From a virus (taxonomy: Duplodnaviria; Caudoviricetes): a DNA stretch of 64,000 nucleotides. Below the pieces are notes generated by a model, which searched no databases, had not been told where the DNA came from, and worked only from the letters and a program-made list of their open reading frames with translations. Positions 4,054-44,569 of the stretch are shown one piece after another. Position 1 is the first letter of the stretch, and each line of letters begins with the position of its first letter. The position numbers and the translations under genes were made by a program. The DNA lies in IMG/VR virus record IMGVR_UViG_2934390892_000001, positions 23,046 through 87,045 of that record; one strand, written 5' to 3'.

Positions 4054-4454
4054 CCGCCCCGATGCTGTTCAAGCTCGTCAGGGATCACGACGTCAGTGGC
4101 GTGTCCGGCGTGGGTGAGGTCGCTGACGGGGTGATCTGGCCGGACGGCACCGTGTCGGTCCGCTGGCGTGGAGAGCGTCCGTCGGTCGTCCACTGGGTCA
4201 ACCTCGACGACGTCAAAGCGATCCACGGCCACAGCGGAGCAACGAGGGTCGTGCTGCCATCCTCCGAGCGCGAGCGGCTTGGCCGGATCGCTGACGCGCA
4301 TGCGAAAGACGACGGCGGAGCGGGCACCACGTCCGGGATGTGTCAGGAGTGCGGCTGGGCTCACCCGTGCCCCACGTTCGTGTGGGCGACCACCGAACGG
4401 GACGCGAACGCGACCTGGGATCCCCGCGACGACGAGGCTGAGGAGGCGTCGTGA
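4050..4454 (+). CDS. Hypothetical phage protein
   Basis: F.L.RDHDVSGVSGVGEVADGV.WPDG.V..RW...HGHSG.T.V motif, then CQECG..PCPT. Confidence 0.75.
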   Translation: MTAPMLFKLVRDHDVSGVSGVGEVADGVIWPDGTVSVRWRGERPSVVHWVNLDDVKAIHGHSGATRVVLPSSERERLGRIADAHAKDDGGAGTTSGMCQECGWAHPCPTFVWATTERDANATWDPRDDEAEEAS

Positions 4455-5826: not shown

Positions 5827-6129
5827 ATGGCTATCAACTGGGGCGACCTGCCCTCGGCGCCCGAGAACGACACCGCCGAACAGCGCGACGCACGGATGGC
5901 GGAAGGTCGCCCGTGCCTACGCTGCCCCAAGAAGGCAACGACCGCGTACGTGATCCAGACCAGGTCTGGCCCGCGCTGGATCGACCTGTGCAAGGCCGAC
6001 AGCGACGCCATGGTGCGCTGGCTGCACCGGGAGATCGTCGTGGTCGAACTGCCCACATCGGCCAACCCTGAGCCGCAGCCGCCCGCCTCGCCGATGGACG
6101 CCCTGGCCGAGTTCCTCTCCACCCGCTGA
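5827..6129 (+). CDS. Hypothetical Zn-binding protein
   Basis: CLRC...RWIDLC. Confidence 0.65.
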   Translation: MAINWGDLPSAPENDTAEQRDARMAEGRPCLRCPKKATTAYVIQTRSGPRWIDLCKADSDAMVRWLHREIVVVELPTSANPEPQPPASPMDALAEFLSTR

Positions 6130-17919: not shown

Positions 17920-19269
17920 GTGGCCGTCAGGTTCAGCGCCTCCGGACAGCACTACACCGCCACCGCGGGACTGCCCGGCAACGTGTACACATTCACCGCA
18001 TGGGTGTGGTCTGCGGCGGTCGGCAGCCGGTACAGGGTCGTCTACTGGTTCCGGCAAACCAGCGGAGATCACTTCTCCGGGGTCGGCGTCCGAGACAACC
18101 CCGTCGACCTCCAGATGATGGAGGACGTCTCCTACTGGTTCTCTGGCGTCGGGCCACTCGCCGCATCAGCGCAAACCTGGTACCAGGTCGCCGCCGTCGT
18201 CAACGGAGCCAACGCCACCTTCTACCGATCAGCCGCAGGAGACCCGCTCGCCTCCGTGTCGGTGTCGAACTTCGCGCCCCCCGCAACACCCAACCAGTTG
18301 TGGCTCGGGACGGATGCTTTTGGCGGCTGGTGGGATGGCAGGATTGCCGCCGTCAAGGTGTGGGATGCAGCCCTGTCTCAAGCTGACGTGGAAGCAGAGC
18401 TCAGTCAGCAGCAGCCGAAACGCACCACCAATCTGATCCGCTGGCACCCGTTCGTCTCTGCGGAGCCGACCGACTACTCCGGTCTGGGCAACGACCTCAC
18501 GGGCGGCACCGGCGCGACGACCGAGGATGGTCCGCCCATCCCGTGGGGTTCCGCCGCCCCGATGCTCCTCTTGCCCGCTGCGGGTGGAGCCCCGGCCAAC
18601 GGAACCCTGTCGGCATCCCTGCCGCCGCTCTCGGCGACCATCAACGCCGCGGTCACCGTCAGCGGAACACTCGCTGGAACACTGCCCAGCCTCACAGCCG
18701 CCGCCACAGGTGCTTCCACGGCAGCGGGATCGCTCACCGCCATGCTGCCTCCGCTGACGATGGTGTCATCCGGTGCCGCCACCGCGTCGGGCGTTCTCAC
18801 CTCATCGCTTCCCGCCCTCACCGCCGACGTCTCAGCCAGCGTCGAAGTCGCGGGCCAGCTCGACGCGGCACTTCCCGCGCTGACCGGCGACCTGCAAGCG
18901 TCAGCCAAGAGCACAGGGATGCTCGCCGCTGGCCTGCCCGCGCTATCGGCCGTCCTTTCTGGCGCGGCTGGGGTTTCTGGCACCGCCGGTCTCTCGCTAC
19001 CGGGCTTGACCGCGAGCCTGGCCGGCGACGCCCGAGTGGCTGGGGACGCCACAGCTGTCCTACCCGCCCTATCCTGCACGCTGACCGGGCAGATCGTGAC
19101 ACCGCAAGGCGGACTGGCGGCCACCCTGCCATCCCTCGCCGCGGCTCTCGCCGGAACGTCCGACGGCGTCACACCCGTCGGCGTTCAAGTCTTGGTCGGC
19201 CCTCCACAGCTCGGCTGGCCTGTGGGGGTCGCCCGTTCGACCTGGCCCGTTGGGGGCCCCACGCTCTAG
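17920..19269 (+). CDS. LamG/ConA-like domain fibre protein with nine ~21-aa repeats and a Trp-spaced tail
   Basis: YTFTAWV...TWYQVAAV...WDGRIAAVKVWDAALS; G.L...LP.L repeats. Confidence 0.75.
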   Translation: MAVRFSASGQHYTATAGLPGNVYTFTAWVWSAAVGSRYRVVYWFRQTSGDHFSGVGVRDNPVDLQMMEDVSYWFSGVGPLAASAQTWYQVAAVVNGANATFYRSAAGDPLASVSVSNFAPPATPNQLWLGTDAFGGWWDGRIAAVKVWDAALSQADVEAELSQQQPKRTTNLIRWHPFVSAEPTDYSGLGNDLTGGTGATTEDGPPIPWGSAAPMLLLPAAGGAPANGTLSASLPPLSATINAAVTVSGTLAGTLPSLTAAATGASTAAGSLTAMLPPLTMVSSGAATASGVLTSSLPALTADVSASVEVAGQLDAALPALTGDLQASAKSTGMLAAGLPALSAVLSGAAGVSGTAGLSLPGLTASLAGDARVAGDATAVLPALSCTLTGQIVTPQGGLAATLPSLAAALAGTSDGVTPVGVQVLVGPPQLGWPVGVARSTWPVGGPTL

Positions 19270-19613: not shown

Positions 19614-20297
19614 ATGAGCGATCTCCTGGTGATCGTCCCGAGCCGCGGACGTCCTCACAACATCGCCGACCTTTACGTCGCATGGAGCGAGACCACCCAC
19701 AGGGACGCCCACCCGCTGGTCGCGGTCGACGACGATGACCCGTCGCTGCCCGAATACCAGCGTGTGTGTTCGCTGACGGGCGTTGAACTGGAGGTCGGAC
19801 CGAGGCTGCGCCTCACGGGCACGCTCAACAAGGTCGCCAGCGAGCGAGCCCCACACCACAAGGCGATCGCGTTCATGGGCGACGATCACCGGCCTCGCAC
19901 GATCGGCTGGGACTCCCACATCATGGCGGCGCTCGACGGTCTTGGTACAGGCATCGTCTACGGCAACGACCTCTTGCAGGGCGAGAGGATGGCCACCGCC
20001 GTAGCGATGACTTCGAACATCGTGTCCACGCTCGGCTACATGGCCCCACCGCAGATGGTGCACCTCTGCCTCGACCTTTGCTGGGTGGACTGGGGTAAGG
20101 CGATCGACCGGCTCGCCTACCTGCCGGACACGGTCATCGAGCACATGCACCCAGCCGTCGGCAAAGCTCAAAGTGACCGTGGCTACGAAGAGGCCAACAG
20201 CCCCGAGCAAACAGCCGCCGACCACGCTGCCTACCAGGCGTACCGGCACGGGCCCGCGTTCGAGGCGGACGTGGAGAAGCTGAGGGCGCTGCTGTGA
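19614..20297 (+). CDS. GT-A fold (GT2-like) glycosyltransferase
   Basis: LVIVPSRGRP...VDDDD...FMGDDH.PRT.GWD...IEHMH. Confidence 0.8.
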   Translation: MSDLLVIVPSRGRPHNIADLYVAWSETTHRDAHPLVAVDDDDPSLPEYQRVCSLTGVELEVGPRLRLTGTLNKVASERAPHHKAIAFMGDDHRPRTIGWDSHIMAALDGLGTGIVYGNDLLQGERMATAVAMTSNIVSTLGYMAPPQMVHLCLDLCWVDWGKAIDRLAYLPDTVIEHMHPAVGKAQSDRGYEEANSPEQTAADHAAYQAYRHGPAFEADVEKLRALL

Positions 20298-21163
20298 AAG
20301 TCCTCATCACCGGCTCGTCAGGGTTCGTCGGCCGGCACTTCGTCCACGCCTTGGACGGCCACGACCTTCACCTGGTCGACGTGGTCACGGGAACGGACGT
20401 CCGTGACTTCTTCCGGCTCAACCACACCCGGTTCGACCTCGTCATCCACCTCGCCGCAGTCGTCGGGGGCCGAGCCCAGATCGAAGGCGCTCCGCTGTCG
20501 CTTGCCGTGGACCTGGCGATCGACGCCGACATGTTCACGTGGGCGCTGAGGACCCGACCACGACGGATCGTCTACTTCTCGTCGTCGGCCGCGTACCCGA
20601 TCGACCTGCAAAACGACTACGCCCGCCCCCGTGCGATGCGCGAGCAGGATCTGAAGCTGTCGGGCAACATCGGCAACCCGGACATGACGTACGGCTGGGC
20701 GAAACTCTCCGGAGAGCAGCTCGCCCACCACGCCGAGAACGAGGGCCTGCGCGTCCACGTGTTCCGGCCGTTCTCCGGCTACGGCGAAGACCAAGACCTC
20801 GCCTACCCGTTCCCGGCGTTCATCCGCCGCGCCGCCACCAGGCAGGACCCGTTCACCATCTGGGGCGACGGCAACCAGGTCCGCGACTGGATCCACATCT
20901 CGGACATCGTGGCCGCCACGCTGACCGCCATCGAGGAGGACGTGCCCGGACCGGTCAACCTGTGCACCGGCCGGGACACCTCCTTCAACGAGCTCGCCCG
21001 CCTCGTGTGCCAGCAAGCCGGGTACGAGCCGACGCTGAAGCACGTCCTGGACGCACCCCAAGGCGTCGCCTACAGGGTCGGAGACCCGGCCAAGCTGAAC
21101 GCCTTCTATACGCCGAAGGTCGAGTTGGAAGAAGGCATCAGACGCGCTCTCAAGGCCGCCTGA
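20294..21163 (+). CDS. NAD-dependent nucleotide-sugar epimerase/dehydratase
   Basis: TGSSGFVG Rossmann motif, SSSAAY, YGWAK (YxxxK), GDGNQVRDWIH. Confidence 0.92.
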   Translation: MKVLITGSSGFVGRHFVHALDGHDLHLVDVVTGTDVRDFFRLNHTRFDLVIHLAAVVGGRAQIEGAPLSLAVDLAIDADMFTWALRTRPRRIVYFSSSAAYPIDLQNDYARPRAMREQDLKLSGNIGNPDMTYGWAKLSGEQLAHHAENEGLRVHVFRPFSGYGEDQDLAYPFPAFIRRAATRQDPFTIWGDGNQVRDWIHISDIVAATLTAIEEDVPGPVNLCTGRDTSFNELARLVCQQAGYEPTLKHVLDAPQGVAYRVGDPAKLNAFYTPKVELEEGIRRALKAA

Positions 21164-22051: not shown

Positions 22052-22159
22052 ATGGCCTGCCTCCCCTTCACGCACAAGTGGGTCACGGTCGAACGGATCG
22101 GCAAGGTAATCCACCAGCGTTGCTCCAAGTGCGGCAACACCCGCGTACGCGTCCAGTAG
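22052..22159 (+). CDS. 35-aa Zn-ribbon protein (not in the ORF track)
   Basis: MACLPFTHKW...QRCSKCGNTR. Confidence 0.5.
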   Translation: MACLPFTHKWVTVERIGKVIHQRCSKCGNTRVRVQ

Positions 22160-22179
22160 CCCACCCAGGGGGTGCTCTC

Positions 22180-22485
22180 ATGGCAGCCCCTTCCTGGCGG
22201 ACCACTCCGAAGCCTCAAGGGTGGGGGGCTATCAGACAGCGCATCCTCAAACGGGACAATCACGCCTGCCAGATGCCTACCCCCCTGGGGGTGTGCGGGG
22301 CCTGGGCTAACGAGGTGGACCACATCACCCCCGCCTCGCTGGGGGGGTCTGATGAGCCGGCGAATCTCAGGTCCCTGTGTGGCCCCCACCACAAGGTGAA
22401 GAGCTCACGCGAGGGCGGCCAGGCGTCGGCAGCCAAGCGGATCCCACGCAACAGGCCGGCTGAACAACACCCCGGACTCCGCTGA
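22180..22485 (+). CDS. Packaging-associated HNH endonuclease
   Basis: W..IRQRILKRDNHACQ...EVDHI...NLRSLC..HHKVKS. Confidence 0.9.
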   Translation: MAAPSWRTTPKPQGWGAIRQRILKRDNHACQMPTPLGVCGAWANEVDHITPASLGGSDEPANLRSLCGPHHKVKSSREGGQASAAKRIPRNRPAEQHPGLR

Positions 22486-22581
22486 CCACACCACGAAACC
22501 GAGCACAGAGCGTCGCAAAGGTCTCCGATCCGCCGGGCTTTATGCCTACCCACAGTGATAACCGCAGGACGGGAGACGGCC

Positions 22582-22725
22582 ATGGACATCGTCATCCTTC
22601 TCGCAGCCCTAGCCTTCCTCGCTGCCACCATCTGGTCAGCCATCCAGAAGGCATGGCCACTCGCACTCCTCGGCCTCGGCGCCTTCCTCCTCGTACTCCA
22701 CGCGAGCGGACTCATCACCACGTGA
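22582..22725 (+). CDS. 47-aa membrane protein (not in the ORF track)
   Basis: GGGAG RBS; MDIVILLAALAFLAATIWSAIQKAWPLALLGLGAFLLVL. Confidence 0.55.
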   Translation: MDIVILLAALAFLAATIWSAIQKAWPLALLGLGAFLLVLHASGLITT

Positions 22726-22880
22726 GCCTGCACATCGTCCCGGTCGGCGACCTGATCGAGCACGCCACCACAAGCGAATGTCCGTGCAAACCGCGAGACC
22801 AGTCAGTGAAACGGGACGACGGCAGCGTCCGACGGCTCGTCGTGCATCACAGGATCGACGGCAGAGAACAGAACGAGTGA
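22722..22880 (+). CDS. Small His/Cys phage protein
   Basis: HIVPVGDLIEH...CPC.P...VVHH..DGRE. Confidence 0.65.
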   Translation: MSLHIVPVGDLIEHATTSECPCKPRDQSVKRDDGSVRRLVVHHRIDGREQNE

Positions 22881-23086
22881 CCAGCGCGCCCCGCACCACG
22901 CCGCGACCATGAGACGCAAATGCGACAAGCCGGACGAACTCCATACATGTAGGGTCAGACGGTTTCCGCAGGTCAGAGCCACAAGGTGGGGTATGCCCCC
23001 TTTGTCCGTTTCTTCCCCGCCCGGTCCGGCATAGCACCTCCGGCTCTGTACGGGTTGTCAAGCCCACCAAGCACGTCGAGTCAGAT

Positions 23087-23193
23087 GCGGCGACATGCTG
23101 CGCCTGGCTAGCTGTTCACCCCTTCAGGTGATCGCTTTCGACCATCCAATCAAGTCCCCGACATGGGGGCTTGTCGTCGTCCCGACATGGGAG
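23087..23193 (+). promoter_or_regulatory. Three GACAT-loop hairpins in the terS leader
   Basis: GCGGC-GACAT-GCTGC; CAAGTCCCC-GACAT-GGGGGCTTG; TCCC-GACAT-GGGA covering the RBS. Confidence 0.75.
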
Positions 23194-23200
23194 AACTGAG

Positions 23201-23638
23201 ATGGCGCGATCCACGGGCCCTGTCCCGAAGCGCAGTTCTGAACGCCGCCGGCGCAACAAGCCGGAAGGCGTCGAAGTAATGTCCGTCCCTGTCCCCGAGC
23301 AACAGCCGGTGGTGCGCCCGCTCGCCGACGAGTCCTGGCATCAGATTGCTCGCGACTGGTACGACTCGCTGGCCGAGTCCGGGCAGGCCGTGTTCTATGA
23401 GCCGTCGGACTGGGCGACCGCGCGCTATGTGGCCGAGGCCATGTCGCGCGGGCTGCAGGCGTCGAGGTTCTCGGCGCAACTGTTCGCCGCGGTGTCGTCG
23501 GCGATGACCGAGCTCCTCACGACGGAAGGCGCTCGTCGGCGTGCCCGCCTTGAAATTGAGCGGGGCAAGCCTGGCGAGAGTGAGAAGCCGGCCGGTGTGA
23601 CGGCGCTCGATGACTATCGCACCGCCCTCGGGGGCTGA
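23201..23638 (+). CDS. terS: Terminase small subunit
   Basis: GPVPKRS.ERRRRNKP...WH.IA..WY.SL.ESGQA.FYEPSDW...LL.TEG.RRR.R.E. Confidence 0.9.
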   Translation: MARSTGPVPKRSSERRRRNKPEGVEVMSVPVPEQQPVVRPLADESWHQIARDWYDSLAESGQAVFYEPSDWATARYVAEAMSRGLQASRFSAQLFAAVSSAMTELLTTEGARRRARLEIERGKPGESEKPAGVTALDDYRTALGG

Positions 23639-25370
23639 CGGGCTCGCGGTTGATCTCGACGCTCTTGAGCCGGTCCGGATCGGGCCGACGTGGGAGCGGG
23701 ACCCTGACCATCCGAGTGGGTGGCGGCTGCCGGAGTTGACACTCGGCTGGGACATCGTGATGTGGCAGGCTGACAACCTGCAGCATTCGACGGGTCAGCC
23801 GTGGCGATACACGCCTGAGCAGTTGCGGTTCGTCTTGTGGTGGTACGCGGTGACGCCGGAGCTGCGGTGGGTGTACCGGGATGGCGTCCTGCAACGCCTC
23901 AAAGGCTGGGGCAAAGATCCGGTAGCCGCGACTCTTTCGGGTACTGAGTTTGTGGGTCCGTGCCGGCCTGACAGGTCTGGCCGCACTGTGCGGGATCCGT
24001 GGGGGAACGAGCATCCAGCCGGTGTCCCGCATCCGGAGGCGTGGGTTCAGATCGCCGCCGTGTCGAAGGATCAGACCCGGAACACGATGACCCTGTTCCC
24101 GTCGCTCTTCACAAAAGCGGCGATCAAGCGGTACTCCATCGACCTCGGCAAAGAGATCATCTACGCGCACAAGGGCGCCAAACGCATCGAGGCCGTCACG
24201 TCCTCGCCGCGGGCGCTTGAGGGCGGCCGGCCAACGTTCACACTGCGGAACGAGCCCCATCACTGGCTCTCCAACAATGAGGGCCACGAGATGGACGCGG
24301 TCATCGACCGGAACGCCGTCAAGTCCTCTGACGGCATGTCCCGGCCGCTGTCCATCACGAATGCCTACGAGCCTGGCGAAGACTCCGTCGCCGAGCGGGC
24401 CCGAGACGCCTACGAACTGATCCTGGCTGGCAAGTCGTTAGCGACCGGGATCTTGTACGACTCGCTTGAGGCGCCGCCGGAAGCGCCGCTGTCAGCAGAG
24501 GCCGCCCCGAAGGTGGTCGAGCTGATCCGTGGCGACTCCACATGGCTGGATGTGCCGCGCATCGTGCAGGCCATCCTCGACCCGCGTAACCCTCCTAGCA
24601 GGTCGAGGCGGTTCTGGTACAACCAGATCGTCGCAGCGGAGGACGCGTGGATCGCGCCCTACCAGTGGGATGCGCTGGCCAAAGCGGACCGGCTCGTCGA
24701 GGACGGCGAAGTCGTCACGATGTTCTTCGACGGCTCCAAGTCGGACGACGCCACAGTCCTGGTGGGGTGTTGCGTCTCTGACGGGCACGTGTTCCTCATC
24801 GACCACTGGCAGCGTCCTGCCGGGCTGGACTCGAAACTGCCGTGGGTGGTGCCTCGCGAGCAGGTGGACGCCGCTGTGGATCGGGCGTTCGACCGATGGC
24901 GGGTGTGCGCGTTCTCTGCGGACCCCGGGTCTGGCGAGGACGAGTCGGGGGAGCGGTTCTGGGACGGCTTCATCGACGGATGGGGCATCCGCCACGGCGA
25001 CGCCCTGGTCATCAAGGCCACGGTGACGGCCGGTAGTCATCACCCGGTGATGTGGGACATGCGTGCCACGGTCCGGCAGCAGGAGTTCACCGAAGCCACG
25101 GAACGCTGCTTCTCCGACATCACTAGCACGCTCACGCTGACCCATGACGGCAACCGGGTTCTTCGTCAGCATGCCGTGAACGCGCGCCGCCGGCCGAACC
25201 GGTGGGGTGTCGCGATCGGCAAGGAGCACCGCGAATCCCCCCGGAAGATCGACGCCGTGGTGGGTGTGATCGGCGCCCGGATGATCCGCAGAAAGCTGCT
25301 GGCGTCGCCGGAGTGGAAGAAGCAGGCAACCAAGAAGCCGCGGACGGGCCGCGTTTACGGATTCGCTTAG
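23610..25370 (+). CDS. terL: Terminase large subunit
   Basis: RLKGWGKDP Walker A, QIAAVSKDQT, LEGGRPTF..NE.HHW, FDGSKSDDAT, KIDA. Confidence 0.95.
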   Translation: MTIAPPSGADGLAVDLDALEPVRIGPTWERDPDHPSGWRLPELTLGWDIVMWQADNLQHSTGQPWRYTPEQLRFVLWWYAVTPELRWVYRDGVLQRLKGWGKDPVAATLSGTEFVGPCRPDRSGRTVRDPWGNEHPAGVPHPEAWVQIAAVSKDQTRNTMTLFPSLFTKAAIKRYSIDLGKEIIYAHKGAKRIEAVTSSPRALEGGRPTFTLRNEPHHWLSNNEGHEMDAVIDRNAVKSSDGMSRPLSITNAYEPGEDSVAERARDAYELILAGKSLATGILYDSLEAPPEAPLSAEAAPKVVELIRGDSTWLDVPRIVQAILDPRNPPSRSRRFWYNQIVAAEDAWIAPYQWDALAKADRLVEDGEVVTMFFDGSKSDDATVLVGCCVSDGHVFLIDHWQRPAGLDSKLPWVVPREQVDAAVDRAFDRWRVCAFSADPGSGEDESGERFWDGFIDGWGIRHGDALVIKATVTAGSHHPVMWDMRATVRQQEFTEATERCFSDITSTLTLTHDGNRVLRQHAVNARRRPNRWGVAIGKEHRESPRKIDAVVGVIGARMIRRKLLASPEWKKQATKKPRTGRVYGFA

Positions 25371-25378
25371 GAGATCTG

Positions 25379-26782
25379 GTGGCGCTCACGCAGGAACAGG
25401 CTGAAGCCACCGTCCGGACGCTCCTTGAACTGCGTAGGCCGGAGCAGGACCGTCTGCAGTGGATCGCCGCCTACGTGCGGGGCGATCACAGCAGCGTGTA
25501 CGTGCCGCGTAGCGCGCGGGATGAGTACAAGTGGCTGCTGCAGCGAGCCAAGGTCAACATGTTGCGGCTGGTCGTGACGGTCGTCGCGCAGAACCTGTAC
25601 GTGGACGGCTACCGGGCTACCGGGGTCGACGAGAACGCGGACCCGTGGAAGATCTGGCAGGCGAATCGGATGGACGCCCGCCAGCACGGGATTCACCGGG
25701 CGGCGCTGAAGTACGGGATCTCGTATGCGACGGTGCTGCCCGGCGAGCCGGTCCCTGTGATCACTCCGATGTCGCCGCGGCGTATGACGGCGTTCTACAG
25801 CGACCCGGTCAACGACGAGTGGCCACTGTTCGCGGTCGAGGTGACCAGCGAGAAGGCCAAGGGCGACGACGGGCGGCTGGTGACGCGGAAACTCGTCCGG
25901 CTGTACGACGAGCAGAGCACCTACCGGTTCGTGAGTGACGCTGAAGGGCGCCGCCTTGAGGCGGGCAGGGTCGACGACCACGAGATGGGCGTCTGCCCGG
26001 TGGTGCGTTACCTCAACGAGGTCGACCTGGATGAGGACGAGGCTGTTGCGGGTGAGGTCGAGCCGTTGATCCATCTCCAGGATCAGATCAACTCGACCAC
26101 GTTCAACCTGCTGATGGCGCAGCAGTACGCGGCTTTCAGGCAACGCTGGGTGACCGGCATGGCGCCGGAGCTGGACTCCGAGGGCCGCCCGATCGAGCCG
26201 TTCCGGGCGGGCGTGGACAGGCTGTTCATGGCCGTGGACTCGGACACTAAGTTCGGCGAGTTCGGCGAGACCTCTCTTGAGGGCTATCTGAAGTCCCGCG
26301 AGGAGTCGATCCGTGAAATGGCGACCATTTCGCAGACGCCGCCCTACTACCTGCTCGGTCAGATGGCCAACCTGTCCGCCGAGTCGCTGGTGGCGGCCCG
26401 AGACGGCCTCGACCGCAAGGTGGAGGAACGCAAGAGCTCGTTCGGCGAGTCTCACGAGCAGATACTGCGGCTGGCGGGCCTGGCGAGCGGCAACAAGGAC
26501 GCCTGGCAGGACGAAGCGGCGCAGGTCGTGTGGCGCGACACCTCCAGCCGGGCGCTCGCCGCCACCGTGGATGCGCTCGGCAAGCTGTCGCAGATGCTCG
26601 GGGTGCCGCAGCAGGAGCTGTGGGAGAAGATCCCGGGCGTCACTCAGACGGACGTAGCCAGGTGGAAGATCACCGCTGGGCAGGCGGACGCGTTCGCTCA
26701 ACTGAACCAGATGCTCGAACGGCAGATGGACCCCGCCGACGCTCGCGAGCCGGAGTTGGCGGATGGCCAGCCCGCAGGCTGA
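25379..26782 (+). CDS. Portal protein
   Basis: W.IWQANRMDARQ..IHRAAL.YG, CPVVRY.N, AFRQRWVTG; follows terL. Confidence 0.92.
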   Translation: MALTQEQAEATVRTLLELRRPEQDRLQWIAAYVRGDHSSVYVPRSARDEYKWLLQRAKVNMLRLVVTVVAQNLYVDGYRATGVDENADPWKIWQANRMDARQHGIHRAALKYGISYATVLPGEPVPVITPMSPRRMTAFYSDPVNDEWPLFAVEVTSEKAKGDDGRLVTRKLVRLYDEQSTYRFVSDAEGRRLEAGRVDDHEMGVCPVVRYLNEVDLDEDEAVAGEVEPLIHLQDQINSTTFNLLMAQQYAAFRQRWVTGMAPELDSEGRPIEPFRAGVDRLFMAVDSDTKFGEFGETSLEGYLKSREESIREMATISQTPPYYLLGQMANLSAESLVAARDGLDRKVEERKSSFGESHEQILRLAGLASGNKDAWQDEAAQVVWRDTSSRALAATVDALGKLSQMLGVPQQELWEKIPGVTQTDVARWKITAGQADAFAQLNQMLERQMDPADAREPELADGQPAG

Positions 26783-27500
26783 GCGCCTCGCCGAGCAGCA
26801 CCGCGTCCAGCAGGTCACGCTCCGCGCTGGCGTGAGCCGCGACGTGGTTGCTCTGCTGCGGGACCTGTTCGACGTCGACAACGCTGACCGCACCTGGCCG
26901 GCCATCCGGTCGATGCTTGCGGCCATGGCCCAGCAGCAACACGGCACGTCGGCCACGTTGGCGAACACCTACTACGGGCAGGCCCGCATCGAGGCTGGCG
27001 CGGACGGCTCGTTCCTTCCGATCACCCCGGCTGCTCTGGCCGAGGAACTGCTGAAAGTCGTGCTGGACGCGACCGGGATCGCCGCGTTCAAGCGGGCCAT
27101 CTCCCTCGGTAAAACCCCTGCGGAGGCGCTGCAGATCGCTGGCGTCACCCTGTCCGGGGCGGTGTCGAGGCTGGTCTTGTCCGGCGGCCGGGACGCGATC
27201 CTCGGCAACGTGCGCGAGGACCGGCAGGCGGTCGGCTGGGCGCGGTTGACGGACGCCCACCCGTGCGCCTTCTGCGCGATGCTCGCCTCACGCGGGCCGG
27301 TCTACCGGTCCAAGCAGACGGCCAAATTCGAGGCCCACGACCACTGCGCGTGCATGCCTGTCGCCGCCTGGTCCCGAGATGAGGCGTGGCTGCAGCACAG
27401 CCGCGACCTGTACGAGCAGTGGCAGGACGTCACTCAAGGGCACAGCGGCGCGGATGCCCGCCGAGTCTGGCGCCGCCACTGGGACGACCGCGCAACCTGA
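26763..27500 (+). CDS. MuF-like minor head protein
   Basis: WARL....CAFCAMLASRGPVY...HDHCAC. Confidence 0.8.
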   Translation: MASPQAERLAEQHRVQQVTLRAGVSRDVVALLRDLFDVDNADRTWPAIRSMLAAMAQQQHGTSATLANTYYGQARIEAGADGSFLPITPAALAEELLKVVLDATGIAAFKRAISLGKTPAEALQIAGVTLSGAVSRLVLSGGRDAILGNVREDRQAVGWARLTDAHPCAFCAMLASRGPVYRSKQTAKFEAHDHCACMPVAAWSRDEAWLQHSRDLYEQWQDVTQGHSGADARRVWRRHWDDRAT

Positions 27501-27511
27501 TCTTCCTTTCC

Positions 27512-27591
27512 GGGCTGGAGCCGACATGGCGTCCGGCCCTCACGCATGCCCCCAACCCCTGCCGACATGGCGGGCTGTCCCGACATGGGAG
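27512..27591 (+). promoter_or_regulatory. Three GACAT-loop hairpins in the scaffold leader
   Basis: Loops at 27523, 27564 and 27582; the last stem contains the GGGAG RBS. Confidence 0.75.
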
Positions 27592-27598
27592 TTACCGA

Positions 27599-28153
27599 AT
27601 GTCCGAAGCGACACCAGAAACCGACGTCGAGCAGCTGCTTGCCGAGGTCGGTTCCACGCCGGACCCGTCCACGTCCGATCCTCAGGCGCAGGAGCCCGAC
27701 ACGGGCGCCGCGTCGAAGGACTGGCAGGCCGAGGCCGCCAAATGGAAAAACCTGGCCAGAAAGCACGAGACCACGGCCAAGACCAACGCCGACGCTGCGA
27801 AGCGCCTCACCGAGATCGAGGACGCGCAGAAGAGCGAACAGCAGCGCCTCCAGGACCGTGCCACGGCCGCCGAGCAGCGGGCCCTCCAGCTTCAGTCGGC
27901 CAACGCCCGGCTGCTGGCCGCCACAACGCACGGCATCCCGGCGGACCTGATCGACCTGCTCGGCGACGGCGACGAGGAACTGATCAACGAGCGGGCTCGC
28001 CTGCTCGCGGAGAAGCTCGCCAGCGCAGTGCCAGCGCCAGTTCCAGCGAACCCATCGTCGACGCGGCCTGTGGAGTCGCTCAAGCCCGGCGCCGCACCGG
28101 CGGCGAACGAGCCAAATCCGGACGCATGGATCCGGCGTCTGGCGGGCCGCTAA
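27599..28153 (+). CDS. Capsid scaffolding protein
   Basis: DWQAEAAKWK..ARKHE..AK.N coiled coil before the capsid gene. Confidence 0.85.
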   Translation: MSEATPETDVEQLLAEVGSTPDPSTSDPQAQEPDTGAASKDWQAEAAKWKNLARKHETTAKTNADAAKRLTEIEDAQKSEQQRLQDRATAAEQRALQLQSANARLLAATTHGIPADLIDLLGDGDEELINERARLLAEKLASAVPAPVPANPSSTRPVESLKPGAAPAANEPNPDAWIRRLAGR

Positions 28154-28227
28154 CCACCCATCTCGCAGCAACCGGATTCCTTGCACGGGGCCCGGGGCCG
28201 CTGCACACCTGAAAGTGAGGTTGCCCC

Positions 28228-29172
28228 GTGCCCTACAACTCCATCATTTCCAGGGACTCCAGCAACGACCCGCTGGTCCCGACGCCGGTGTCGGCGCAGA
28301 TCATCCAGGAGATGCCGACGCGCTCGGTGATGCTGCAGCGCGCCCGGCAGGTCCGCATGTCCACCAAGACGCAGCGGCAGCCGGTCCTCGACGTCCTGCC
28401 GACGGCCTACTTCGTCAACGGCGACACCGGGCTCAAGCAGACCAGCGCCCAGGACTGGAAGAACGTCGAGCTCGTGGTGGAAGAGCTGGCCGTGATCGTG
28501 CCGATCCCGGAGGCGTACCTGGACGACGCCCAGGTGCCGATCTGGGATGAGGTCCGGCCGCGCATCGTGGAGGCGTTCGGCGTCGCGATCGACGCCGCCA
28601 CGCTGTTCGGCGTGTCGAAGCCGTCCACCTGGGGCAACCCGATCTACCAGTCCGCTGTTGCTGCGGGCAATGTCGTCACCGCGACCACCGACCTGGCGCT
28701 GAACGTCTCGCAACTCGGCGAGATGCTGGCCAAGGACGGCTTCCCGGTGGATGCGTTCGCTTCCCGTCCTGGCCTGAACTGGAAGCTGGTCGGTCAGCGT
28801 AATGCCGATGGTCTGCCGATCTACCAGCCGGACCTGCAGGGCCGTCCTGGCGGAACCCTGTACGGCTACCCGCTGAACGAGGTCGCCAACGGCGCCTGGA
28901 ACGCCACCGAGGCGGAGCTGATTGCGGGCGACTGGTCGAAGGCCATCATCGGTCTGCGCCAGGACATCACGTTCAAGATGTTCACCGAGGGAGTCATCAC
29001 CGACAACACTGGCGCCGTCCAGCTCAACCTCATGCAGCAGGACGCCGTCGCGTTGAGGGCCGTGATGCGGCTGGCTTACGCCACCGCAAACCCGATCACC
29101 GCGCTCAACGCCAACTCGGCGACTCGCTACCCGTTCGGCGTGCTCCGCGCCGCTTCGTACACCTACTCCTGA
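28228..29172 (+). CDS. Major capsid protein (HK97 fold)
   Basis: LVP....QIIQ...EELAVIVPIPE...L.GYP...GDWS...GLRQDIT...QQD.VALR. Confidence 0.92.
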   Translation: MPYNSIISRDSSNDPLVPTPVSAQIIQEMPTRSVMLQRARQVRMSTKTQRQPVLDVLPTAYFVNGDTGLKQTSAQDWKNVELVVEELAVIVPIPEAYLDDAQVPIWDEVRPRIVEAFGVAIDAATLFGVSKPSTWGNPIYQSAVAAGNVVTATTDLALNVSQLGEMLAKDGFPVDAFASRPGLNWKLVGQRNADGLPIYQPDLQGRPGGTLYGYPLNEVANGAWNATEAELIAGDWSKAIIGLRQDITFKMFTEGVITDNTGAVQLNLMQQDAVALRAVMRLAYATANPITALNANSATRYPFGVLRAASYTYS

Positions 29173-29208: not shown

Positions 29209-29223
29209 ATCTTGGAGGCCCTC

Positions 29224-30222
29224 GTGCGTGTCCTGGCCATGCTTCACCTGTATCCGCCGACCGGGAACGCCGGCGCCGAGTGGGCGGTGCACACGCTGCT
29301 CGCCGCGCTCGTCCATGCGGGCCACGAGGTGGACGTGCTGCTCATCGAAGAGTCCGCGATCGGTGAGCCGTACACGCTGGACGGGGTGCGAGTGCACCCC
29401 AGGCGCGGCAAGGGCGACCCGTTCGAGTGGCTGCTGTCCGACCATCCGCCGCACGTGATCGTCACCCATCTGATGAACACGCCGCGGGCGACGGTGCTCG
29501 GCGAGATGTACAACATCCCGGTCGTGCACGTGCTCCACAACGACCACGACAACGAACGCTCCTGGCTGCAGCGAGGCCCGGCGCTGGTCGTCTACAACTC
29601 CGACTGGGTGCGGGAAAGCTGTCTGTCCTGGTGGGACGACACCCGGTTGGGGCCGCCACCGAACGGTGTCGTGGTGCGCCCGCCGGTGATCCCCTCGCAC
29701 TACGAAACAACCCCTGGTGACCGCGTCACGCTGATCAACATGTGCGCCAAGAAGGGCTCCGACCTGTTCTGGGAGGTCGCCCGGCGCATGCCGGACGTCC
29801 GATTCCTCGCCGTCAAGGGCGCCTACGGTCAGCAGATCATCGAGGACCTGCCCAACGTCGACGTTCAGGCGTGCGTCCCCGGCGACCAGATGCGGGACAC
29901 GGTGTACGCCCGAACCAAGATCCTGCTGGTCCCGTCCGAGTACGAATCGTGGGGGCGCGTCGCGGTCGAAGCCATGGTGTCCGGCATCCCGGTCATCGCA
30001 CACCCCACGCCCGGCCTGCAGGAGTCGCTCGGCAACGCTGGGCTGTTCGCGGACCGGGACAACCCGGACGCGTGGGTGACGGAAATCCGCCGGCTCCGCA
30101 AGCTCCCTGTGTGGAAGGCCGCCTCCAAGCGGGCCAAGGTCCGCGCCGCCGAGCTCGACCCAACCCCTGACCTTCAGACGTGGGTGGAAGCTGTCGAGGC
30201 GACCGCCCGCGTGATTGCGTGA
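29224..30222 (+). CDS. GT-B fold (GT4-like) glycosyltransferase
   Basis: YPP..NAGAE...GHEVDV...PSEYESWGRVAVEAMVSGIPVIA (ExxGxxxxEA). Confidence 0.9.
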   Translation: MRVLAMLHLYPPTGNAGAEWAVHTLLAALVHAGHEVDVLLIEESAIGEPYTLDGVRVHPRRGKGDPFEWLLSDHPPHVIVTHLMNTPRATVLGEMYNIPVVHVLHNDHDNERSWLQRGPALVVYNSDWVRESCLSWWDDTRLGPPPNGVVVRPPVIPSHYETTPGDRVTLINMCAKKGSDLFWEVARRMPDVRFLAVKGAYGQQIIEDLPNVDVQACVPGDQMRDTVYARTKILLVPSEYESWGRVAVEAMVSGIPVIAHPTPGLQESLGNAGLFADRDNPDAWVTEIRRLRKLPVWKAASKRAKVRAAELDPTPDLQTWVEAVEATARVIA

Positions 30223-33556: not shown

Positions 33557-36500
33557 ATGGCGGCCGAGGTCGGCTCCGCGTACGTCACGATCCTGCCCAG
33601 CGCCCGTGGTTTCCGCAGGGCGCTGGAGAAGGAACTCGACACCCCGATCCGAGACTCGGGACAGAAGGCAGGCAAGTCCCTCGGCGACGCCATCTCCAAG
33701 GAAGGCGGACCGGCCGGAGACCGGTTCGGCAAGAACTTCACCCGATCGCTGATCCCCAGCCTGAACGGCGCCACGGCGGCGGTCGGCAGGTTCGGCGTCA
33801 CTATGACGGCGGCGCTGCTGCCGAGCCTTGGCCAGGTCACGGCGGGCATCGCGAAAATCGGTGCCGGGGCGGGGGCGTTCTCGCTCCTCGCCGCTGGCGC
33901 CGGTACGGCGGCCGTACAGGTGGCAGGGCTCGTGGCGGCTCTCGCTCCTGCTGCTGGGGCGTTGGCGGCGCTCCCCGGTGCGGGCCTGCTGGCGGCGGGC
34001 GCTCTCGGCACGCTCAAGCTTGCGCTTTCGGGTGTTGCTGAGGGCTTCGCCGCGGCAATCTCGGGCGACTTCGACAAGTTCATGGAGGGCACCAAGGGCC
34101 TGTCCGCCGCCGCGGGCGAGGTCGCCTACGAGCTTTTCCAGATGGCGCCGGCCTTCCAGGGCGTCAAGGAAGCCGTCCAGAACGCCGTCTTCGGCCCGCT
34201 GGTCGGGCAGATGTGGTCGCTGCTGCCCGCCATCAACGCGGTCACGGCGGGCATGGTCGGCGTGGCCACGCAGTTCGGCAACGCCGCCCTGCAGATCGTC
34301 GACTTCGTCCGCTCCGCGGAGACGATCGCAGCCGTCCAGTCCGTCTTCGAGTCGTTGCGCACGTCGATCGCGGCGATGCTGCCCGCGCTACGGCCGCTGC
34401 TGGACGGGTTCCGGGATCTCGGCGTCGTCGGCGCGCAGTGGCTGTCCGGTCTCACGCCCGGCATCGCTGACGCCGTCGCGCGTTTCGGCGAGTTCCTTTC
34501 CAGCGCCGCCGCCTCCGGCAAGGCGCTGGCGTGGATGGACGGCGCGCTCGTCGTCTTCAAGCAGCTCGGCGCCATCCTCCAAGATCTCGGCGGGATTGTC
34601 TCCGGCGTCTTCGGCGCCATGGCATCCGCTGGCACGGGCGCGCTCGGCGTGCTGGGCCAGCTGCTGGACGCGGCGAACGCATGGGTGAACTCCGCCAGCG
34701 GCCAGCAGGCGCTGGTGGCCATCTTCCAGTCGCTGGCCCAAGCCGGCAAGGCGCTGGTGCCGGTCATCACCGCGATCGCGACCGGGATAGGTGCGCTGGC
34801 GCCGTTCGTCGCCGACCTGGCGACCGCGTTCGGGCCGATCCTCACCACGGCGATCCAGGCGATCGTGCCTGCCCTGGCCGCGATCGCGCCCAGCATCGTC
34901 ACCGTCATCAACGGGCTCGGCGGCGCCGTGCAGGCGCTCGCTCCTGCCCTGCTGCCGCTCGGGCAGACGATTTCCGGCCTGTTCCAGACGGTCGCGCCGG
35001 TGTTCGCCCAGATCGGTCAGGCCGCCGCAGCACTGCTGCCCGGCATCCAGGCCGTCGTCCAGGGCGTCGGCGGGGCTATCGCCGCGCTCGGGCCGGCGCT
35101 GGTTCCGATCGCGCAGGGCATCTCTGCCGCCTTCGGCGCGGTCGGCCCGGTCGTCGCCCAGTTCGGTCAGGTGCTCGGCGGTGTCGTGACCGCCGTCGCC
35201 CCTCTGCTGCCCGTCGTCGGGGAGCTGGCGGCGACGGTCGGTGGCACCTTCCTGTCCGCGGTGTCCGCCCTGACGCCGATGCTGGGCCCGCTCGTTTCCG
35301 CGGTCGGCCAGGTGGCTGTCGTCATGTCGCCGCTGATCGCCCAGGTGGGTCAGCTCGCCGCCATGCTGCTGTCCGGGCTGCTAGCCGCAATCACCCCGTT
35401 GTTGCCTGCCCTTTCGCAGGTTGCCGCTGCCCTGAGCGGAGCCCTGCTCGGTGCGGTCGGGCAGATCGGCGCCGCGTTGCTGCCGCTCGTGCCCATCGTC
35501 GCGAACCTGGCCGCCACACTCGGCACCACCCTGGCGGGCGCGATCTCCACGCTGGCGCCGCTCGTCACGCCGATCGTGGCCGCGGTCGGCCAGTTCGTCG
35601 CCGCGGTCACGCCGCTGCTCGGGCAGGTCCTCCAGCTCGCGTCTGCAATCCTGTCGGCGCTGTTGCCTGCCTTGACTCCGCTGATCGGGACGTTCCAGCA
35701 GGTCGTCACCGTGCTCGGCGGGGCCCTGATCCAGGGGTTCACCACACTGGTGAACGCGATCGCGCCTCTGCTGCCGGTCCTCGCCCAGCTGGTGCAGACG
35801 CTGGTAGGGGCGCTTCTGCCAGCGATCACGCCGCTGATTCCGATCGTCGCGCAGATCGCGGCGACGCTCGGCGGCGCGTTCGTTCAGGCGATCAGCATCA
35901 TCGTGCAGGCTGTCACGCCACTCATCCAGGTGCTCGGACAGGCCTACCAGCTCATCGGCCAGCAGCTGCTGGCGGCGGTCCAGTCGATCGTCCCGTACGT
36001 CTCCCAGTTCGCTCAGGCGATCGCCGGGCTGGCGCCGATCCTGGGTCAACTGGTCACCGCCGCGCTGCCCATCATGGTGCAACTGATCCAGATGTTGGCG
36101 CCGATCGTGGGCCAACTGGTGACGGCGTTCGGAACGTTGTTGCAGGCGCTCGCGCCTCTGCTGCCGATCGTGGTGCAGATCGCCGGAGTGATCGGGCAGA
36201 CGCTGCTGTCGGTCATCTCCAGCCTGCTGCAGGCGGTCACACCGCTGCTGGGTCCGCTCGGCGAGTTGGCGGTGACGATCGGGCAGGTCCTGCTGAAAGC
36301 GGTTCAGGCGGTCGCACCATTCGTGGTGGCGCTGGCGAAGTCGATCGCCCAGCTCGTGCCGGTGTTCGTGCCGTTGATTGAGCTTGCGACGCAGATCGCA
36401 GCCCAACTGGGCGGCATCCTCGTGCAGGCCATCACGACCCTGGTCACGGCACTGACACCGGTCCTGCCGGTGATCGTCGAACTGGCGTCGCAGATCGGCA

Positions 36501-43602: not shown

Positions 43603-44569
<967 letters not shown>

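Follow-up and report, generated by a model that had tools for sequence, protein, structure and literature searches.

Control of translation by small hairpins has familiar examples in the coat protein/replicase operator of the RNA phages and in the operators of T4 RegA, which are single hairpins with known protein partners, weak alone and repressive when clamped. For the scaffolding gene of phage P22, autoregulation at the post-transcriptional level, according to the amount of free scaffold, was reportedly found by Wyckoff and Casjens in 1985; it is a precedent, although P22 is unrelated to the module treated here and no RNA element is known to have been defined there. Tailed phages make hundreds of scaffold and capsid copies and few terminase and portal copies from one late transcript, and to our knowledge the mechanism by which actinobacteriophages control this virion stoichiometry is largely unknown. 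Here we describe a family of tandem hairpins, with GACAU as their most frequent loop, that lie directly before the genes of the small terminase subunit (terS) and of the head scaffolding protein in a virus of the Caudoviricetes (IMG/VR record IMGVR_UViG_2934390892_000001, 87,045 base pairs (bp)). The window, that is, the whole stretch analysed, is the 64,000 nucleotides (nt) from position 23,046 to 87,045 of that record, with a G+C content of 67%, and its six hairpins belong to a family that recurs in dozens of related actinobacterial phages and are not the quirk of one genome. They are probably an undescribed RNA signal setting the output of assembly proteins.

The closest described phenomenon is that of the Start-Associated Sequences (SAS) of Cluster K mycobacteriophages, which are copies of a 13-mer (GGGATAGGAGCCC) present 11-19 times and only at non-structural genes (PMC3203893), and for which the authors of that paper state that the arms of the ESAS do not support RNA pairing. 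The leader motif of the present locus shares with SAS and ESAS that it is short, conserved and asymmetric, overlaps the ribosome-binding site (RBS) a few bases before the start codon, runs in one orientation, occurs in actinobacteriophages, frequently has an inverted repeat upstream and is suspected of binding a host or phage factor. The overlap, orientation and conservation are seen in 50 of 50 copies placed 17-24 nt before the start and in 152 sense against 8 antisense occurrences, both detailed below, whereas the 11-19 copies at non-structural genes have no counterpart, the motif having two sites in 87 kb, both at virion-assembly genes; its sequence is also another one, and its upstream arms covary as RNA. 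A search of the window for the SAS consensus with up to two deviations gave one match with 2 mismatches, at 34784 and thus not at the leaders, against 1.86 expected. With the translational operators named above, the leaders have in common a small hairpin that includes part of the initiation region and a loop whose bases matter while the stem sequence is free, a pattern found in the upstream hairpins, the RBS hairpin being uninformative with its invariant stem. They differ from the coat protein and RegA operators in being tandem arrays, of two or three hairpins each, placed before two genes of a double-stranded DNA phage.

The RNA motif family, with its unusual tandem and two-site layout, appears to be new. 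A cmscan search of Rfam 15 with positions 22400-28400, on both strands and with permissive filters, gave no match at E <= 10, and literature searches found no published description of the leader motif, which supplementary motif lists could still hold. The available text of a paper on 224 motifs (PMC5737381), its supplements apart, has no passage on terminase, capsid or Streptomyces, and among the matches listed for the exact 9-mer considered below there were only unrelated uses, such as primer sequences. The motif is therefore a ready candidate for a new RNA family and a practical marker of the true terS and scaffold starts in high-GC prophages, and it possibly parallels the Start-Associated Sequences of Cluster K, which are themselves still without an explanation.

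In the window, the loop GACAT begins at 23092, 23160, 23184, 27523, 27564 and 27582, always on the + strand and always closed by a C-G pair, with 6, 9, 4, 3, 6 and 4 contiguous flanking pairs in the same order, the hairpin at 27523 extending to 11 pairs with one bulge. Each of the six folds as drawn in isolation, the state for which all hairpin energies were computed, at -5.1 to -16.7 kcal/mol:

23086..23102, + strand: terS-leader hairpin A, 6-bp stem including one G-U pair, GACAU loop closed by C-G, -7.6 kcal/mol
23151..23173, + strand: terS-leader hairpin B, 9-bp stem, GACAU loop, core CCGACAUGG, -14.8 kcal/mol
23180..23192, + strand: terS-leader hairpin C, UCCC-GACAU-GGGA, -5.1 kcal/mol, 42.5 bits with covariance model R1
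27512..27539, + strand: scaffold-leader hairpin H1, GACAU loop, 11 pairs and one bulge, -16.7 kcal/mol
27558..27574, + strand: scaffold-leader hairpin H2, 6-bp stem, GACAU loop, -10.0 kcal/mol
27578..27590, + strand: scaffold-leader hairpin H3, UCCC-GACAU-GGGA, -5.1 kcal/mol, 49.5 bits with R1 over 27553-27600

The RBS, GGGAG, lies at 23189-23193 and at 27587-27591 and is followed by 7 nt and the ATG of terS at 23201 or of the scaffold gene at 27599. The 3' arm of each last hairpin, GGGA, is made of the first four bases of GGGAG, and part of the initiation region is in this way contained in the hairpin. A first-pass annotation, made from the letters alone, had pointed out these six C-G-closed hairpins, and all of them were located where it placed them; correct as well were its reading of the last hairpin as TCCC-GACAT-GGGA with GGGAG 7 nt before the ATG in both leaders, and its naming of the two genes as terS (PF25673 at 2.8e-48) and scaffold (DUF4355 and scaffold PHROGs). 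It had also said that the stems differ yet stay paired, which is so for the upstream hairpins and fails for the two RBS hairpins, whose stems are identical. Its own proposed test, that the loop should be kept in relatives while the stems covary, came out positive, as described below.

The exact 9-mer CCGACATGG is present 5 times in the window against 0.92 +/- 1.08 expected (100 shuffles, none of which reached 5), every copy being on the + strand and within the two leaders, so that chance does not account for them; GACAT is also the loop of the sixth hairpin. No further copy beyond these 5, and no reverse-complement copy, occurs anywhere in the 87,045-bp contig. The two-hairpin covariance model R1, run over the 64 kb, scores 49.5 and 42.5 bits at the leaders and 17.9 at the next best place. 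This third-best match, at 44292, was rejected, as it falls within an open reading frame (ORF) with collagen-like Gly-X-Y repeats (44230-44400), which is probably a tail fibre gene.

Relatives were fetched via the portal protein and comprise 22 bacterial-genome loci, including Nonomuraea, Microtetraspora, Actinophytocola, Aeromicrobium and many Streptomyces, and 80 viral contigs, in which the module genes were mapped by tblastn. Of 63 distinct scaffold leaders, 51 have an RBS-overlapping CC-GNNAN-GG hairpin with at least one further copy upstream; the 32 distinct terS leaders with the same TerS family include 20 with the RBS-proximal copy and 18 with both this and an upstream one, the position of hairpin B being occupied by a hairpin in 18 of the 32; this conservation of the leaders reaches down to about 50% portal identity. 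A typical scaffold leader has, from 5' to 3', a hairpin with a free loop after the stop codon of VG15 (the minor head protein gene immediately 5' of the leader), then H1 with a long GC stem and the conserved loop, a pyrimidine- or T-rich tail with CATGCCC, H2, and finally H3 in the form (U)CCC-GACAY-GGGAG, 5-9 nt before the start codon, while terS leaders have a hairpin 22-24 nt upstream of an H3-type hairpin identical to the scaffold one. All 50 RBS-proximal scaffold copies begin 17-24 nt upstream of the start codon, and R1 recovers leaders of other loci that were not used in its training. The motif is absent from the named phages Muddy, ReT1v-1 and Attoomi; Muddy, ReT1v-1 and the locus L027 have one GCC-GACG-GGC hairpin directly before the scaffold RBS (at about 5985-6005 in Muddy, L103, and about 4415-4430 in ReT1v-1, L104), and this single hairpin may be the ancestral form.

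The pattern of the RBS hairpin H3 was also searched in 301 Streptomycetaceae genomes, giving 23 matches against 2 for the reversed control. Seven of the 23 are double-hairpin phage leaders, which extend the motif beyond the query family. Four of them precede scaffold genes, one a terS-like gene and two short ORFs, and three of these four scaffolds are only 31-37% identical to that of the window, the fourth match being the leader of L005 itself, at 53%. Because the other 16 matches are single copies upstream of unrelated host genes, there is no host regulon. The sole recurrent host context is a family-3 glycoside-hydrolase-like ORF in three species of Streptomycetaceae (L107, L108, L109), with a single conserved CCCGACATGGGAG right before its ATG, probably by orthologous conservation or chance. 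Two other searches were of little use on the host side: R1 over 151 Actinomycetes genomes had no match, even in G001 with its known copy, and is uninformative there, and the bare 9-mer is too common in host genomes, with 480-772 copies per genome over both strands, about 1.7-3.4 times the reversed control.

That the conserved element is a folded RNA of the sense strand is suggested by three kinds of observation. Over 85 non-redundant loci (756,941 bases), CCGNCANGG occurs 152 times in sense and 8 times in antisense between VG15 and the scaffold gene, and 43 times in sense and 6 in antisense upstream of terS. When 3' arms were exchanged among copies and the mean constrained energies compared, the upstream stems of scaffold leaders had -16.5 kcal/mol with their own partner against -12.4 +/- 0.32 with a swapped one (z = -13, n = 105), and those of terS leaders -17.3 against -10.5 +/- 0.76 kcal/mol (z = -8.9, n = 25). 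In a MAFFT alignment built without reference to any structure, the upstream helix has 4 of its 6 pairs with changes at both positions (33 cells), and G-U pairs are present. The covariation score is 0.149, a value that none of 500 shuffles (0.058 +/- 0.010) reaches, and slid registers stay at or below 0.073; the H2 stem covaries across relatives. RNAalifold on plain MAFFT alignments recovers the invariant tops alone, because bulges shift the stems.

The loop is more constrained than the stems. The 155 distinct copies before scaffold genes have the loops GACAU (63), GACAC (42), GGCAU (9) and GACAG (6), besides rarer ones such as GUCAU, GGCAC and GACAA, so that in the main group G1, C3 and A4 are fixed, position 2 is free and position 5 is mostly a pyrimidine. 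In a distant group, with portal identity of about 51-55%, the loops are GGAAC, GCGAC and GCAAC, or GNRA plus C, and some copies of H2 are plain tetraloops (GCC-GACA-GGC); the general rule is thus a C-G-closed GNNA with one extra base on the 3' side, although RNAalifold favours a G1-Y5 pair leaving a triloop over this GNNA-plus-one fold. The loops of the hairpin after the VG15 stop, in the same leaders, are unconstrained, and in each of the 11 loci that carry both leaders the two RBS-proximal loops are identical, seven times as GACAU, twice as GACAC and twice as GGAAC. Because the neighbouring hairpin has free loops and the loop dialects match in 11 of 11 loci, we argue that more than foldability is selected in the loop. 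Two pairings of the loop itself were considered and rejected: with 16S rRNA there are only chance-level matches, of at most 8 nt with a G-U pair, and none for the GGAAC dialect, and the pairing of GACAU with the AUGUC at the scaffold start, which appears in the minimum free energy (MFE) fold, does not suit terS and the many scaffold genes that begin with AUGG.

A loop-specific trans-acting factor, as inferred in the first-pass annotation, is a reasonable reading of this pattern, since the loop is conserved, the stems covary and the RBS is in the 3' arm of the last hairpin. Our tentative preference, which we hold as possible and no firmer, is for operator-type RNA hairpins read by such a factor and controlling the translation of terS and scaffold; that the motif works at the RNA level, that it has a binding partner and in which direction it acts are inferences. 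The six hairpins would sit in the late polycistronic messenger RNA of a siphovirus-type actinobacterial phage or prophage, as a module of two or three hairpins that stands directly before terS, the first gene of the packaging block, and again before the scaffold gene, with which the shell block begins and which the capsid gene follows. Three or four bases of the RBS lie in the 3' arm of the hairpin nearest to the gene, and 18-24 nt upstream there are one or two hairpins whose stems vary freely under the same CC-GNCAY-GG top. A sequence-specific factor, most likely a protein and possibly an oligomer spanning adjacent hairpins, would recognise these loop tops and, once bound, would clamp the weak RBS hairpin and lower translation initiation; before the scaffold gene, its binding would in addition stabilise the terminator-like H1 and perhaps affect read-through. 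The outputs of terS and of scaffold with capsid would in this manner be tied to one signal.

Several findings weigh against this operator reading. The thermodynamic z-scores of the whole leaders, -0.73 and -2.30, are unremarkable for DNA with 67% GC, and the MFE fold of the 113-nt scaffold leader (z -0.73) retains H1 and swaps H2 and H3 for competing pairs. With 3-4 pairs and -5.1 kcal/mol, the RBS hairpin is weak; its three C-G pairs are invariant, with no covariation, and the fourth pair is U-A in just 35 of 57 sequences. The pairing of this hairpin is plausible, and it is unproven because the stem never varies; the first-pass annotation had the hairpins gate the RBS, which is right in that the RBS lies in the 3' arm of the last one, and 'gate' is too strong a word for so short and invariant a stem. 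Kinship among the sequences, which are not independent, inflates the shuffle statistics. The GNNA-plus-one pattern, the GNCA tetraloops and the GNRA plus C of the distant group mean that folding and not recognition could be behind part of the loop conservation, as the loops fit GNNA-plus-one and some are plain tetraloops. Finally, all 660 contig ORFs were compared with five hairpin-bearing prophage regions. Apart from the virion genes, HNH and the genes for glycosylation, no ORF is common to all five regions or to four of them, and no dedicated regulator stands out; the set found in all five consists of HNH, TerL, portal, VG15, scaffold, capsid, glycosyltransferase, adaptor and tail tube, and two more glycosylation genes are common to four of them.

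As for the partner, the first-pass annotation had proposed the scaffold or TerS. TerS is unlikely as the common partner, because its family is missing where scaffold hairpins persist and present where terS hairpins are missing: Terminase_7 matches were found in none of the 17 Streptomyces genome loci (L004-L019, L022), most of which retain the scaffold-leader hairpins, and L067, L069 and L072 have a Terminase_7 TerS and hairpins before the scaffold gene only. The scaffold fares better through a natural exchange. In a hairpin-poor lineage (L004, L008, L033, L049), which is without H2 and H3, portal, VG15 and capsid are respectively 93-96%, 89-91% and 96-97% identical to those of the hairpin-bearing L048 and L011, the lineages differing in one block of about 500 bp that extends from the VG15 stop to two thirds into the scaffold gene; in the hairpin-poor version an H1-like hairpin, its T tract and CATGCCC are all retained, and the RBS is plain and strong. 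By this comparison, the scaffold leader is exchanged in a single cassette together with the part of the scaffold gene that encodes the N-terminal two thirds, and the scaffold stays a candidate factor through this linkage, its sole support, which is not proof of an interaction; the Cys/His cluster of VG15 is equally present in the hairpin-poor lineage. A fuller form of the operator reading, improbable in our estimate, would make the hairpins the operators of a small post-transcriptional regulon in the head module of many actinobacterial siphoviruses, with a head-assembly protein binding the GNCAY tops. Unassembled scaffold, via the N-terminal part co-inherited with the leader, would be the simplest binder, and the clamped RBS hairpins together with H1 would shut off terS and scaffold-capsid expression when assembly lags.

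An explanation by host ribonucleases is unlikely. The hairpins would be processing or stability signals, either with loops that are RNase E sites or as protective caps at 5' or 3' ends after cleavage of the pyrimidine-rich linker. Cutting would divide the long late transcript in two, one part running from terS to VG15 and the other covering scaffold and capsid, each with its own lifetime, and a cut in the last loop would free the RBS. RNase III needs long duplexes and RNase E prefers single strands, and the RNase III sites of phage T7 and the mycobacterial RNase E sites are likewise conserved structures in the gaps of a long phage transcript. Purified mycobacterial RNase E cuts RN|CNU on the 5' side of the cytidine (PMC10641625), and G-A-C-A-U matches this letter for letter, yet only 77 of the 155 loops fit (GACAU, GGCAU, GUCAU, GCCAU), and about half of the loops have C, G or A at position 5. 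The constant C3 of the main group agrees with such a site, while the distant dialect (GGAAC, GCGAC) has no central C, and the invariant A4 is not in the RNase E motif. An enzyme common to the Actinomycetes would account for the motif in phages of Nonomuraea, Microtetraspora, Streptomyces and Aeromicrobium and for the lack of a shared phage regulator, and the elements do occupy the only long intergenic gaps of the operon, with H1 followed by the T-rich tail and the conserved CATGCCC. On the other hand, RNase E would find a poor single-stranded substrate in a loop of 5 nt that is closed by a GC stem, PMC10641625 reports no correspondence between cleaved positions and predicted loops, and the match of the two loops within one genome (U or C) is left unexplained.

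We also give a low, though real, chance to purely structural control with no dedicated partner, in which H1 would be a leaky intrinsic terminator or a 3' stabiliser, the other hairpins would hold the gap in a folded state that guards it from, for instance, Rho or nucleases, the short RBS hairpin would tune initiation, and the loops would be conserved because a C-closed loop of GNNA type folds best. The 8 nt on the 3' side of the H1 stem have in relatives a mean of 3.3 T, with at least 4 T in 19 of 43 copies, against 1.18 after H2 and a background of 1.19, so that H1 looks like a terminator in about half of the relatives, a feature absent from the first-pass annotation; the window's own H1 has no T tract, its tail (TCACGCAT) having 2 T in 8 nt, and a simple terminator scan is silent there. 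A promoter reading was rejected, no sigma-70-like site having been found in 22400-28400. A terminator before the most-needed proteins is hard to square with stoichiometry unless regulated. The GNNA-plus-one loops, with their GCC-GACA-GGC tetraloops and GNRA-plus-C versions, the single GCC-GACG-GGC hairpin of Muddy, ReT1v-1 and L027, and the start-codon-pairing structure of the capsid gene, which is conserved and needs no protein, all suit control by structure. If stability alone counted, however, the loops should drift among stable variants; in the main group C3 and A4 do not change although the stems turn over, and the neighbouring hairpin of the same leaders has free loops.

Very improbable is antitermination or anti-pausing of the boxB kind, in which an arginine-rich peptide, from the TerS N-terminus or an N-like protein, would bind the pentaloops and load on RNA polymerase, which would then read through H1 and signals further downstream. 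The lambdoid nut sites act in antitermination after early promoters with a companion boxA, and lambdoid N proteins bind pentaloop hairpins of the boxB kind; boxB and the leaders have alike a short GC stem with a five-base loop, GNRA-like in boxB and possibly so in the leaders, and differ in location and copy number and probably in function and in the companion boxA. A GNRA-like fold would suit the five-base loops, H1 resembles a terminator in relatives and the TerS N-terminus carries KRSSERRRRNK, but the hairpins stand directly at start codons of the late operon and not after early promoters, two or three in tandem, and the TerS family is without a match in the 17 Streptomyces loci, most of them with scaffold-leader hairpins.

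Hardly credible, finally, are double-stranded DNA sites, either TerS repeats beside cos or stoperator-like repressor sites blocking late transcription in the lysogen, for which speak the place of the terS-leader copies, with terS on one side and on the other the probable genome end, where many viral contigs start (54-374 nt before terS), and the direct orientation in short intergenic gaps, as in the Cluster A stoperators (PMC3203893). Against them stand the same motif 4.4 kb from cos before the scaffold gene, scaffold copies in phages without terS copies and with another TerS, a conserved centre with variable complementary arms, which is the reverse of a dimeric operator, G-U pairs whose counterparts on the opposite strand would be A-C mismatches, the constant spacing to the RBS, and a complementarity in cis beyond that of swapped controls, for which such sites have no need.

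A third structured leader, separate from the hairpins, precedes the capsid gene, and was compared across the same region of L001-L090, which in the window is the scaffold-capsid gap 28154-28231:

28165..28231, + strand: capsid-gene leader with the outer helix GCAGC/GCUGC, a separate conserved structure

The outer helix is invariant in 32-33 of 34 aligned sequences, and 28183-28191 (GCACGGGGC) is complementary to the capsid start region 28223-28231, with the GTG at 28228. In 45 of 49 distinct leaders the start codon of the capsid gene is covered by a Watson-Crick duplex, of 7 bp or more, with an upstream segment, the corresponding fraction with shuffled upstream sequence having a mean of 0.03 and a maximum of 0.12, and the duplex has compensatory variants, one of them following an ATG start. 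This leader may couple capsid translation to scaffold translation, and its start-codon duplex supports the general picture of RNA-level control in the head operon. Conserved, covarying and strand-specific hairpins at the entry points of both blocks, together with this capsid structure, point to control of virion stoichiometry at the RNA level; should the regulon proposed above be true, it would form with the start-codon-pairing element an RNA-level circuit setting the ratios of virion proteins.

Both hairpin leaders lie within a head and packaging block of the standard siphovirus type, with every gene on the + strand:

22078-22485, + strand: HNH endonuclease (PHROG and Pfam HNH matches)
22542-22880, + strand: small ORF (phrog_2864)
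23201-23638, + strand: terS, small terminase subunit with arginine-rich N-terminus (PF25673 Terminase_7, 2.8e-48)
23610-25370, + strand: terL (phrog_9)
25367-26782, + strand: portal, SPP1-type
26763-27500, + strand: VG15 / MuF-like minor head protein with C-terminal Cys/His cluster (PF25310, 1.2e-34)
27599-28153, + strand: head scaffolding protein (phrog_9857 at 1.8e-18, DUF4355, scaffold PHROGs)
28228-29172, + strand: major capsid protein (Phage_capsid)
downstream of the capsid gene, + strand: glycosyltransferase, adaptor, neck, tail terminator and tail tube (Pfam and PHROG matches)

The genes of the block abut or overlap save at three gaps, of 320 nt upstream of terS, 98 nt upstream of the scaffold gene and 74 nt upstream of the capsid gene. 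Many viral contigs (L023, L060, L062-L067, L087, L089) start 54-374 nt on the 5' side of terS at a conserved sequence containing CTGTACGGGTTGT, at about 22990-23060 of the window, which is probably the cos end of an HNH-assisted cos phage; all three terS-leader hairpins fall between this putative end and terS.

Upstream of the window, in the remaining part of the contig, two clusters of CGACATG were considered and rejected, that at window positions -8991 to -8560 being coding sequence without consistent hairpins and that at -4486 to -4195 a repeat region without hairpins. The second lies in a non-coding-looking stretch at 18450-18950 of the contig (window -4595 to -4095) with three CGACATGCC repeats, many CCAAGCC-like repeats and no leader-type hairpin, a possible origin or attachment region. 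Glycosylation genes also accompany the block: a GT4 glycosyltransferase gene (29212-30222) lies directly 3' of the capsid gene, and upstream of HNH there are a glycosyltransferase-like gene and an NAD-dependent sugar epimerase gene (19614-20297 and 20294-21163). Such genes inside the virion block are kept in four to five of the five related prophages, which suggests that the virions are glycosylated.

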